NCBI GenBank assembly: GCA_964016885.1
Contig: OZ024741.1
Location: 368,776,001-368,840,000, forward strand
Direction: 5' to 3'
Length of the DNA: 64,000 nt
Source: Eledone cirrhosa
Taxonomy: Eukaryota
Below, in pieces: positions 1-64,000 of the stretch; within the stretch, counting starts at the first letter, position 1, and every line of letters begins with the position of its first letter. Position numbers and translations under genes: made by a program. The notes beneath the pieces were generated by a model. That model saw only the letters and a program-made list of their open reading frames with translations, searched no databases and had not been told where the DNA came from.

Positions 1-283
1 ATATATATATATATATATATATACGTATATATATATATATATATACGTATATACATATATATATATATATATACGTATATACATATATATATATATATAC
101 GTATATACATATATATATATATACGTATATACATATATATATATATACGTATATACATATATATATATATACGTATATACATATATATATATATATACGT
201 ATATACATATAATATATATATATATATACGTATATACATATATATATATATATACGTATATACATATATATATATATATACGT
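1..283. repeat. (TA)n microsatellite, CGTATATACA variant
   Basis: Repeating (TA)n-CGTATATACA unit. The same variant resumes after the SINE at 632. Confidence 0.97.
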
Positions 284-631
284 ATCATCATCATCATCAT
301 CATTTCATTTTAACGTCTGCTTTTCCCTGCTTGCAAGGGTGGGACGGGAACTGATGCTGGCTTGATTTCTACAGCTGGATGCCCTTCCTAACACCAACCT
401 CATTTACAGTGAGTGCTGGGTGCTTTTTGCCGTGGCACCTGCACGACCACTTTGCAGTGGAATGATAGGGGACCCCAGTCCCTATCATCTCATTTCTACA
501 GCTGAGTAAACTGGAGCAATGTGAAATAAAGTGTCTTGCTCAAGGAAACAACACATAACCCGGTCTGAGAATTGAACTCACAACCTTTCGATTGCAAGGC
601 CACTGCTCTAACCACTAAGCCATGTGCCTCC
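284..631 (-). mobile_element. tRNA-derived CORE-type SINE with RTE-B-like 3' tail and (GAT)n end
   Basis: On the minus strand: GGAGGCACATGGCTTAGTGGTTAGAGC (A box), GTGAGTTCAATTC (B box), CORE-like CCTTGAGCAAGACACTTTATTTCACATTGCTCCAGTTTACTCAGCTG, then AAAAAGCACCCAGCACTCACTGTAAATGAGGTTGGTGTTAGGAAGGGCATCCAGCTGTAGAAATCAAGCCAG, which matches the RTE-B 3'UTR at ~12630-12700. Ends in (GAT)n. Confidence 0.88.
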
Positions 632-3600
632 ATACGTATATACATATATATATATATACGTATATACATATATATATATATACGTATATACATATATATA
701 TATATACGTATATACATATATATATATATACGTATATACATATATATATATATATATACGTATATACATATATATATATATACGTATATACATATATATA
801 TATATATACGTATATACATATATATATATATACGTATATACATATATATATATATATACGTATATACATATATATATATATACGTATATACATATATATA
901 TATATATACGTATATACATATATATATATACGTATATACATATATATATATATACGTATATACATATATATATATATATACGTATATACATATATATATA
1001 TATACGTATATACATATATATATATATACGTATATACATATATATATATATACGTATATACATATATATATATTATACGTATATACATATATATATATAC
1101 GTATATACATATATATATATATACGTATATACATATATATACGTATATACATATATATTATATATACGTATATACATATATATACGTATATACATATATA
1201 TATATACGTATATACATATATATATATATATACGTATATACATATATATATATATACGTATATACATATATATATATATACGTATATACATATATATATA
1301 TATACGTATATACATATATATATATATACGTATATACATATATATATATATACGTATATACATATATATATATATACGTATATACATATATATATATACG
1401 TATATAACATTATATATATATATACGTATATACATATATATATATATACGTATATACATATATATATATATACATATATATATACAAATATATATACATA
1501 TACATATACATATATATACTATATATATATAATATATATACGTATATATATATACATATATATATATACATATATATATACATACATATATATATATACA
1601 TAACATATATATATATACATACATATATATATACATACATATATATATATACATATATACATACATACATATATATATACATACATATATATATACATAC
1701 ATACATATATATATACATACATATATATATACATACATATATATACATATATATATATACATATATATATATACATATATATATACATATATATATATAC
1801 ATATATATATACATATATATATATACATATATATATATACATATACATATATATATATACATATATATATATACATACATATATATACATACATATATAT
1901 ATATACATACATATACATACATACATATATACATACATACATATATACATACATATATACATACATACATACATACATATATATATATATATACATATAC
2001 ATATATACATATACATATATACATATATATATATATACATATATATATATATACATATATATATATATGTATATATATATATGTATGTATATATATACAT
2101 ACATATATATATATACATATATATATATATACATATATATATATACATACATATATATATATACATATATATATATATACATATATATATATATACATAT
2201 ATATATATACATATATATATATACATATATATATATACATATATATATATACATATATATATATACATACATATATATATATACATACATATATACATAC
2301 ATATATATATATACATACATATATACATATATACATACATATATACATACATACATACATATATATATACATATATACATACATACATACATATATATAT
2401 ATATATATACATATATACATACATATATACATACATACATACATATATATATATATATATATATATATAAACATATATATATATATACATATACATATAC
2501 ATATATATATACATATATATATACATATATATATACATATATATATACATATATATACACATATATATACATATATATATACATATATATATACATATAT
2601 ATACATATATATATATATACATACATATATATATACATACATACATACATATACATACATATATATACATACATATATATACATACATATATATATACAT
2701 ACATATATACACATACATATATATATATACATATATATATATACATACATATATATACATACATATATATATACATATATACATATATATATATACATAC
2801 ATATATATATATACATACATATATATACATTTATATATACATACATATATATACATACATATATATATATACATACATATATATATATACATACATATAT
2901 ATATATACATACATATACATACATATATATATACATATATATACATACATATATATATATATATATCATATATATATACATATATATATACATACATATA
3001 CATACATACATATATATATATACATACATACATATACATACACATACATACATACATACACATATACATACATACACACACACACACACACACACACACA
3101 CACACACACATATATATATACATATATATATATATATATATATACATACATATATATATATACATACATATATATATATACATACATATATATATATATA
3201 CTATATATATACATATATATACATATATACATACATATATATATATATATATACTTATATATATATACATATATACATACATATATATATATATATATAT
3301 ATACTATATATATATATACATATATACATACATATATATATATAATATATACATACATATATATATATATACTATATATATACATATATATACATATATA
3401 CATACATATATATATATATATATATACTATATATATATATACATATATACATACATATATATATATATATATATATACTATATATATATATACATATATA
3501 CATACATATATATATATATACATATATACATACATATATATATATATATATATACTATATATATATATACATATATACATACATATATATATATATATAT

Positions 3601-62100: not shown

Positions 62101-62698
62101 CAAACCCATAGCCTCCATGGATTTCGTCGTAGCCGTCACAATGTTGTCCAACGTGACCATTTAGGTCGCCTGCGATAATTATATAGTCACTGTCGGATAT
62201 TTGGCAGGTAGTTAGCATCAGTGTCTCATAGAATCTGTCTTTTATAGTGCCGGGCAGTCCGGATTGGGGAGCGTACGCAGAAATTACTGTCACCGTAGTT
62301 CTATTGAGGACAAGTCGTATTTTAATTATTCTGTCGTTCACTCTATTTACGTCTATTATCTTATCTGCCCACTTTTCTGCTACCATGATTCCTACTCCAC
62401 CCAGCCCATCGTCGTTTCCCACCCAGAAAAGCTTATAACATCGTTTTTTACCCTCAATGAACCTAGCAGACCCACCCCTCCACCTGGTCTCTTGAATACA
62501 ACAAACATCGACCTCCTTACGTTCAAGCATTTCTACAACCTCGTTAGCGCGACCCTTTAGGGTGCCTACATTTATGGTACCAACTCTGAAGTTTTGGATT
62601 GCGTTTGGGGGTTGGGGGCGGTGGGGGGCGGGGGGCGATGGGGTTATGTTAGCCGTCCGCGGTCGAAACAATGAGGAGTGCTCGCATTCTCGTCCAAA
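59167..62698 (-). mobile_element. RTE-A LINE, lacking the 5'UTR and first codons, frameshifts near 61378 and 60060
   Basis: APE frame to 61352, RT frame 61214-60009, C-terminal frame 59992-59555. Near-identical to 16813-20345. Confidence 0.94.
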
Positions 62699-64000
62699 TA
62701 CATATATATATACATATATATATATATACATATATATATATACATATATATATATACATATATATATATATATATACATATATATATACATATATATATA
62801 CATACATATATACATACATATATATACACATATATATACACATATATATACACATATATATATACATATATATACACATATATATGCACATATATATGCA
62901 CATATATATGCACATATATATACACATATATATACACATATATATACACATATATATACACATATATATACATATATATATACATATATATATACATATA
63001 TATATACATATATATACATATATATACACATATATATACATATATATACACATATATATACATATATATACATATATATATACATATATATATACATATA
63101 TATACATATATATACATATATATATACATATATATACATATATATACATATATATATACATATATATATACATATATATATACATATATATATACATATA
63201 TACATATATATATACATATATATATATACATATACACATATATATATACATATACTCACAAATATATATATACATATACACACATATATACATATACATA
63301 TACACACATATATATATACACATATACACACATATATATATATACATATACACACATATATATATATACATATACACACATATATATATACATATACACA
63401 CATATATATATATATACATATACACACATATATATATATACATATACACACATATATATATATACATATACACACATATATATATATACATATACACACA
63501 TATATATATATACATATACACACATATATATATATACATATACACACATATATATATATACATATACACACATATATATATATACATATACACACATATA
63601 TATATATACATATACACACATATATATATATACATATACACACATATATATATATACATATACACACATATATATATATATACATATACACATATATATA
63701 TATATACATATACACACATATATATATATACATATACACACATATATATATATACATATACACACATATATATATATACATATACACACATATATATATA
63801 TACATATACACACATATATATATATACATATACACACATATATATATATACATATACACACATATATATATATACATATACACACATATATATATATACA
63901 TATACACACATATATATATATACATATACACACATATATATATATACATATACACACATATATATATATACATATACACACATATATATATATACATATA
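62699..64000. repeat. (TA)n array grading into a regular 24-bp unit (CATATACACACATATATATATATA)
   Basis: Directly visible from ~63270. Confidence 0.96.

Follow-up and report, generated by a model that had tools for sequence, protein, structure and literature searches.

Why do retrotransposons of unrelated clades stand in line, each against a simple repeat, over one part of the 3.0-Gb genome of Eledone cirrhosa? The part in question, hereafter the window, comprises 64,000 nucleotides (assembly GCA_964016885.1, contig OZ024741.1, positions 368,776,001 to 368,840,000 of the forward strand). A preliminary description had proposed that its insertions use (TA)n as one shared, preferred target. Targeting was indeed found genome-wide for several families, but their flanks differ by family, so that the single target does not hold. 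The window belongs to a nest of about 70 kb with clear limits, and we consider it probable that unrelated families each entered their own microsatellite there, via family-specific nicking and tail priming.

The nest is real and non-random. TA/ACAT arrays cover 40% of the window, versus a mean of 6.5% in 100 random 10-kb tiles, all taken from 12 large contigs, and only two of these tiles exceed 40%. The arrays are TA-rich and alternating, but they are not pure (TA)n: they consist of (TA)n broken by C, that is, a TA/ACAT mixture, and the longest measures 4.8 kb. The C is on the + strand in 22 of the 27 window arrays of at least 60 bp, and the remaining five lie inside a block of Penelope-like element (PLE) remnants (51448-54243). 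Nearly all of the non-array sequence is mobile DNA. The nest, of which the window is the central part, has sharp limits at about -2437 on the left and +67,260 on the right (window coordinates; about 70 kb), and beyond it arrays occupy 0-4% per 8-kb bin across roughly 57 kb on each side. Further TA-rich nests, with 20-52% array, were seen in random tiles (L126, L150, L162, L139, L184 and L167; genomic loci are cited by such numbers), and several of these keep to a single polarity, either C or G.

The flanks of 24 segments were scored in the window: 19 have an array on both sides, two on one side and three on neither. The two one-sided segments adjoin each other and are array-flanked as a pair. 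Once an R4-like element, R4b, and its 5′ untranslated region (UTR) are counted as one, 19 of 23 insertions are flanked on both sides. The preliminary description of insertions set against arrays, usually on both sides, is thus borne out, as are three of its other remarks: both orientations are present, no other element was seen inserted within any open reading frame (ORF) of the window elements, and (GAT)n tails pass directly into AT repeats (20327-20360, 47680-47700, 58443-58473). It had counted one R4/Dong element where there are two R4-like ones, and had overlooked a Tx1/L1-like element and an RTE family, RTE-C. The sparing of ORFs follows from repeat targeting, and no separate mechanism is needed for it. 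Repeats in UTRs are interrupted: Tx1 and R4b, filling 9.5 kb (34461-43962), are surrounded by (TAA)n and have entered repeats that belong to the UTRs of RTE-C. Of the 23 elements, 19 stand in line, separated by microsatellite. Deletion has acted in the nest as well, arrays having replaced the ends of several elements (24986-25148, 27681-29479).

Copies elsewhere in the genome were scored for a TA-type array no more than 12 nt from the element 3′ end, a situation met at 6.1% of 59,909 random positions. Searched loci were the best 30 matches per family to the window copy, with the window copy removed and extra copies at the same locus kept; counts over all loci pool searched, random-tile and incidental loci, a few of which overlap. 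The extreme 3′ ends of RTE-B and of a CR1-like family, CR1a, were unproductive as queries, and these families were counted in random tiles and through an internal query, respectively. Scored in this way, CR1a, R4a, E605 and RTE-A are enriched at TA-type arrays over random sites, whereas RTE-B, a short interspersed element (SINE), Tx1, CR1b and R4b show no significant excess there.

In CR1a, 28 of 29 searched loci and all three random-tile copies are at a TA-type array. TA continues the tail in 32 of 32 copies, and the adjoining arrays have no polarity (15 to 11 over all loci). Its 3′ arrays have a median length of 333 bp, versus 75 bp expected from target size (p=2e-7), an excess that arrays at E605, R4a and RTE-A do not have. 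CR1a is the sole family behaving as a symmetric (TA)n specialist. Its matches lean towards the + strand (36 of 40), which probably reflects no more than the order in which equal scores were listed.

The CR1 label of this family comes from a pairwise match, the 120 homologs listed being without named references. ORF2, with Pfam matches to an apurinic-type endonuclease (APE) and a reverse transcriptase (RT), is 30% identical over 949 aa (E=2e-107) to a stork RT-domain protein, which we take to be of CR1 type. The tail is a short tandem repeat of AAAGTT type, and the UTR carries target-type repeats. ORF1 of CR1 elements usually encodes PHD, RRM or esterase domains; Pfam found none of the three in CR1a ORF1 (L296:2354-3529, L297:2124-3308). 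It did return an N-terminal Myb/SANT match that is weak and falls short of the cut-off (E=0.002-0.004). ORF1 also has polyglutamine, a pair of CCCH-like motifs was recognised in it by eye, and Atlas matches reached at most 0.85. The Myb/SANT-like region and the CCCH-like motifs make a candidate targeting module, to be taken as a lead only. Among metagenome relatives, 30 (of 80) match near the end of the CR1a ORF, and none of the 30 has four TA units within 400 nt, although about five of these contigs stop before a flank would be reached, and assemblies of short reads are interrupted by arrays of this kind. The comparison is suggestive of a lineage-specific gain of (TA)n targeting by CR1a.

R4a was at a TA-type array in 26 of 32 searched loci and in one of two random-tile copies. 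All of its 35 ends are continued by ACATA, in one orientation, with a polarity of 27 C to 0 G over all loci; none of the 35 is at (TAA)n. E605, a non-coding family, was at such arrays in 32 of 36 searched and 13 of 15 random-tile copies, and its polarity (51 G to 8 C, all loci) is the reverse of that of R4a. It follows from the register and polarity counts that R4a reads (ACAT)n, E605 and RTE-C the opposite strand or plain AT, and CR1a (TA)n. Since R4a and E605 read opposite strands, both often face across one array; E605 was found in 11 of 29 R4a loci. The C-on-plus polarity of the window fits the orientations of R4a (+), of both E605 copies (-) and of RTE-C (-). Sequences of R4a and E605 occur at high depth in sequencing runs of related organisms (L068, L051), so that the two families are either older than this species or shared across its limits.

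A palindromic (TA)n cannot impose polarity, and the strand-polar behaviour of R4a and E605 therefore speaks against a (TA)n that is fragile or readily nicked, and preferred by all families whatever their enzyme. So do the families of which no counted copy is at a TA array: R4b (0 of 45), Tx1 (0 of 14 over all loci, 0 of 7 in random tiles) and CR1b (0 of 7 and 0 of 6). A shared physical target of this kind would suit the symmetry of CR1a and its preference for long arrays, the AT bias of all three GAT-tailed families (see below), and the small PLE-like remnants, which are TA-flanked at four of four left ends elsewhere in the genome. It would also suit a second CR1 family with another tail (L299:3-3005, L142, L206, L008), in which TA follows four of four long matches and the L299 copy, though two of these TA-ended copies adjoin CR1a. 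On balance we regard it as unlikely.

R4b adopts a different repeat: 36 of its 45 copies are at (TAA)n (background 0.1%), and most copies with a visible 5′ end have (TAA)n on both sides. Both R4 families have a single ORF with RVT_1 and zf-RVT matches. A continuous frame of 1098 aa is present in L302; in the window copy of R4a the frame is broken near 23300. The motifs CxxC..H..C, RHD and PD..E/D were read in both C-termini, using what we take to be the definition of the R4 endonuclease, and a PDB search with the R4 C-terminus found no relative. The segment 39494-40480 was considered as a separate element and rejected, as it is the 5′ UTR of R4b, joined to it in L222 and L241.

R4b and the Tx1 element, whose Tx1/L1 label is presumptive, oppose each other across (TAA)n, between the two (TAA)n tracts of RTE-C. 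The latter is a third RTE family, of which the window holds the 3′ end (34243-34460) and the 5′ UTR (43963-45368); elsewhere it has a 1209-aa APE-RT-C2H2 frame (L281). Both of its UTRs contain A/T-runs, (TA)n, (TG)n and (ATT)n. E605 is related to it. The left end of E605 is fixed and the right end variable, it has no ORF, and it matches RTE-C over the terminal ~35 nt (85-89%) and over a piece of 5′ UTR (68-70%); its exact autonomous partner was not found. By its sequence, E605 is a bipartite non-autonomous RTE derivative with 5′-truncated copies, in agreement with the bipartite derivative recognised earlier. A reading of E605 as a + strand Helitron-type element was rejected, the fixed end being the RTE-C 3′ end and the remainder RTE-C 5′ UTR. 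At L254, an RTE-C 3′ end is directly joined to its own 5′ UTR, a further bipartite derivative. On the right, the nest closes with a truncated RTE-C (partial ORF) and a truncated E605 at 64478-67263 (window numbering, L289), both matching the polarity predicted from the array.

The GAT-tailed families behave less strictly. RTE-A was at a TA-type array in 12 of 35 searched loci and in 5 of 18 random-tile copies (p=0.004). In random tiles, the GAT tail is followed by ATATA in 7 of 18 RTE-A, 6 of 18 RTE-B and 3 of 8 SINE copies, versus 1.1% expected. This bias fits a pairing of tail and target such as has been proposed for RTEs (PMC6007223), and later slippage at the tail could contribute to it. 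RTE and SINE copies also occur tail-to-tail (12806-13106; L018, L121), with a small spacer or none in some loci, which suggests that GAT tails themselves serve as targets.

For RTE-B, the SINE and CR1b, insertion anywhere followed by survival in a large neutral array would be sufficient to explain their presence in the window, and Drosophila Waldo-A/B have been given the same explanation (PMC3812793). As a general account, such passive accumulation is very improbable: copies 99-100% identical over the query are already seated in arrays at 81-97%, with register and polarity fixed, and arrays make up 6.5% of random DNA.

Were the repeats chosen, or were they written at insertion by slippage of the tail? 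Microsatellites are known to arise from RTE tails (PMC2887409), element tails and UTRs supply (GAT)n, (ATT)n and TA in the window, and 7 of 31 RTE-A copies have an array at the 3′ end only. However, where both ends are visible, arrays stand on both sides of 59 of 68 E605, 14 of 16 CR1a, 11 of 15 R4a and 5 of 31 RTE-A copies, and eight further copies extended to their 5′ ends (five CR1a, three R4a) all have an array upstream. Left and right arrays of the same copy share variant motifs above the level of arrays from different copies (p=0.0004 for E605, 0.014 for CR1a, 0.003 for R4a and 0.003 for RTE-A), and the window arrays keep C on the + strand regardless of the direction of the adjacent RTE-A. 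Target-site duplications cannot be delimited within arrays; one likely case was noted (L008).

Paralogous empty sites, provided by the repeats inside RTE-C copies, lead to the same answer; they cover (TAA)n and a CA/TA array, and do not extend to CR1a. Of 23 loci with an RTE-C 5′ UTR, 19 have the anchor; 17 of these are empty with (TAA)n present and two are filled. A second array of the RTE-C UTR is empty in 12 of 13 copies, with E605 inside one. The (TAA)n of the RTE-C 3′ UTR holds R4b in L229, L276 and L277, and five other listed copies are empty. At these paralogous sites the repeat precedes the insertion, which makes writing at insertion another highly doubtful source of the arrays. That the kilobase arrays were merely inflated by assembly error is the most remote of these alternatives: public contigs of related organisms do break at such arrays, so that the lengths are those of the assembly, but the variant units differ from segment to segment, the strand bias is consistent, and the same junction patterns are found again at short arrays whose flanks are unique.

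There are also local signs of array growth and duplication. The GT array of RTE-C is 515 bp long in the window, versus 26-86 bp in 20 other copies (6-20x). The array at the left edge of the nest starts at a TA inside the end of a repeat resembling a miniature inverted-repeat transposable element (MITE). A duplicate of this edge (24631-24730) has the same breakpoint and is 95% identical to it, versus 77-90% in the other 11 listed copies, and the variant ATACGTAT is concentrated around the left edge (bins from -2000 to 2000) and again at 24-25 kb, being dense nowhere else. These two observations, and the target repeats that RTE-C and CR1a bring in their UTRs, support the growth loop set out below. 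The greater-than-expected length of the CR1a arrays is what a positive feedback would need, choice of long arrays and growth not being separated by it.

We propose that the endonuclease of each family nicks its own repeat, and that the RNA tail then primes by pairing; both steps are likely. CR1a would take long (TA)n, R4a (ACAT)n, RTE-C and E605 the ATGT/AT strand of the same repeat, and R4b (TAA)n, beside Tx1. GAT-tailed RTE-A, RTE-B and the SINE likely arrive by weak AT pairing, helped by the large target size. An insertion would split its array and leave both halves usable, while element tails and UTRs would supply new targets. Slippage would extend the arrays, longer arrays would attract more CR1a, and one site could snowball; the causality of such a growth loop is inferred. 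A wider version, which we regard as possible but doubtful, is that in octopods a CR1 lineage newly senses long (TA)n, through its endonuclease or its Myb-like ORF1, that R4, RTE and Tx1 elements divide other microsatellites by motif and strand, and that RTE-C UTRs ship landing pads, so that a cross-feeding community would turn a few bases of TA into 70-kb islands and add to genome growth.

Several points weigh against the proposal that each family entered its own microsatellite and enlarged the nest. The selection of the best 30 matches favours young subfamilies, and the random tiles come from a few contigs. Only a minority of RTE-A copies have arrays on both sides. At long TA arrays, neither RTE-B (2 of 17 in random tiles, p=0.28) nor the SINE (1 of 11, p=0.50) differs significantly from background; with the zero counts of CR1b and Tx1, all four may be passive occupants of the nest. 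In Tx1, (TAA)n lies past the stripped tail in only 2 of 14 copies, so that target and tail are not separated there. Within an array, CR1a showed no preference for the perfect TA run of greatest length (p=0.17), which lends no support to a cruciform step, and the length of its arrays could reflect either choice or growth after insertion. The evidence for growth after insertion consists of one array and one duplication. Orthologous empty sites were sought at two loci with short arrays (L068, L051), where the contigs of related organisms stop at the arrays or miss one flank and no listed joint bridges either element.

The features of the window are collected in Table 1.

Table 1. Mobile elements and other features of the window (positions within the 64,000 nucleotides)
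Position	Strand	Feature	Basis
1..64000	.	core of the bounded nest, TA/ACAT arrays with C on +	array segmentation
282..630	-	SINE, tRNA-like head, (GAT)n tail, 3′ segments common to RTE-B	sequence match
3995..4397	+	RTE-A 3′ fragment	sequence match
5396..6007	-	E605, bipartite RTE derivative without coding capacity; very young copy whose 3′ end is on the left	
6316..6388	.	unclassified repeat, fragment	
7319..10484	-	CR1a, 5′-truncated, 1026-aa open APE-RT ORF2 frame, (TA)n-specific family	
11272..12825	+	RTE-B, 5′-truncated, RT with PHD finger	
13081..15250	-	RTE-A, 5′-truncated; 258-bp array separates its tail from RTE-B tail	
15388..16123	+	CR1b 3′ fragment, 129-bp tandem repeat, (ATT)n tail; elsewhere the family is not linked to TA	
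16584..20351	+	RTE-A, apparently full length, 1114-aa APE-RT-PHD frame, (GAT)n tail	
20724..24096	+	R4a, (ACAT)n-specific element with RT and with motifs of a zinc knuckle and a restriction-like endonuclease	
24631..24730	.	95% duplicate of the left edge of the nest (end of TTAA-ended MITE-like repeat)	
24986..25148	+	RTE-A fragment, both ends cut	
27503..27680	.	unclassified repeat fragment; elsewhere TA-flanked at 13/22 left ends	
27681..29479	+	RTE-A, both ends truncated, tail gone	
34243..34460	-	RTE-C 3′ end and microsatellite-rich 3′ UTR	
34461..39478	-	Tx1/L1-like element encoding APE and RT, frames broken, within (TAA)n	
39494..43962	+	R4b (Dong-like) with 1-kb 5′ UTR, in (TAA)n	
43963..45368	-	RTE-C 5′ UTR with native (TAA)n, A-run, (TA)n; ORF absent	
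45457..47690	+	RTE-B, 5′-truncated	
49417..50025	-	E605 second copy, 96.5% to first	
51448..54243	.	Penelope-like remnants, TG-polarity repeats, 126-bp palindrome	
54362..54467	+	RTE-A 3′ fragment	
58074..58464	+	RTE-A 3′ fragment	
59167..62697	-	RTE-A, near full length	

The RTE labels (RTE-A, RTE-B, RTE-C and E605) are provisional and were given from the single-ORF architecture with APE and RT and from the short-repeat tails. In all six RTE-A and RTE-B frames scanned, a PHD finger (PF00628) lies above the Pfam cut-off, directly after the RT and within the ORF (about 19165-19305, + strand, in the full-length RTE-A); a literature search on such a finger in RTE elements surfaced only an ORF1 paper. 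The RTE-A fragments at 24986-25148 and 3995-4397 are one deletion variant. The SINE matches the RTE-B 3′ region at 93%, and its head has an Rfam tRNA match at 565-622 (E=0.026, under the gathering score). CR1b, presumably a CR1 by its motif, has in its 3′ UTR a 129-bp unit repeated 3.9 times (15616-16126). The block at 51448-54243 is presumably Penelope-like, from a resemblance of motifs. Penelope-like elements have an RT, a GIY-YIG endonuclease and hammerhead ribozymes; Pfam and PDB searches gave no match for the block, and a hammerhead ribozyme was not found among 150 of 153 Rfam matches. The block contains a near-perfect 126-bp palindrome (52830-52955) and a direct repeat (52515-54243), and it is the short repeat next to these whose left ends are TA-flanked elsewhere (four of four). 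Rfam microRNA matches were rejected as low-complexity and below gathering scores. The best named homolog of one window element is from Argonauta (63%).

How LINE (long interspersed element) endonucleases gain or switch specificity is an open question, and how microsatellites come to be targeted is poorly understood (PMC3812793). The young, near-identical families of the nest make the question testable, through contrasts such as that between two R4 families, one at ACAT and the other at TAA, and that between a (TA)n-bound CR1 and relatives that lack TA flanks (0 of 30 metagenome contigs). Most target-specific families belong to the restriction-like endonuclease, Tx1 and R1 groups (PMC4640811). 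Dong, an R4-clade element of Bombyx, Anopheles and Biomphalaria, is TAA-specific (PMC3812793). R4b resembles it in its RT, zinc knuckle and restriction-like endonuclease motifs, and in having (TAA)n on both sides in one orientation. R4a has the same architecture but, unlike Dong, targets (ACAT)n; targeting of ACAY belongs to the APE-type Waldo elements, which, like Mino (AC), Kibi (TC) and Koshi (TTC), are microsatellite-specific APE LINEs (PMC3812793). CR1a is like these in being an APE-encoding LINE restricted to one microsatellite. It differs in being CR1-like, by pairwise match, and not R1 or Tx1, and in its (TA)n target, entered in both orientations with long arrays favoured. No (TA)n-specific CR1 and no such cephalopod nest were found in the literature searched, though Repbase, supplements and subscription papers may hold one.

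RTE-2_OV of Octopus vulgaris is an RTE with a microsatellite 3′ UTR (PMC9115989), and RTE-C can be likened to it, by description: a single ORF with APE, RT and C2H2 fingers, and a 3′ UTR that is mostly microsatellite. E605 resembles bipartite RTE derivatives in combining a 5′ UTR piece with a 3′ end (PMC5786205). In the portions of these two reports available here, neither the sites of insertion nor a use of UTR repeats as targets by other clades is mentioned (PMC9115989, PMC5786205). The microsatellite-like RNA tail of RTE elements biases the first target bases, and overlaps of one to several bases have also been cited for CR1 (PMC6007223). That bias concerns one or two bases in the portion available of the same source, whereas CR1a, R4a and E605 sit in arrays of tens to hundreds of bases. 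An annotation of O. vulgaris lists recently active RTE, Dong-R4, CR1, L1-Tx1 and Penelope elements and hotspots of transposable elements (TEs), and its available portion gives neither a mechanism for the hotspots nor microsatellite targeting (PMC13282606; PMC3747384 is cited among related work). The nest suggests, in concrete terms, a mechanism by which TE hotspots could arise in genomes of the octopus type.

Among known systems, the SaTar arrays of guayule and rice are linear, uninterrupted, mixed-family arrays with (TA)n and other microsatellites between the components, which are non-autonomous Mutator-like DNA transposons; array expansion after insertion has been discussed for them, together with maize TAFTA (PMC5907723). 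The main components of the Eledone nest, unlike those of SaTar, encode RT, and they come from several retrotransposon clades, with different repeat targets and nesting in UTR repeats. Microsatellite-targeted LINEs and plant TE arrays were thus known before; what appears new, against the literature searched, is a (TA)n-specific CR1 and a multi-clade nest partitioned by repeat, an animal, retrotransposon-based parallel to the plant SaTar arrays.

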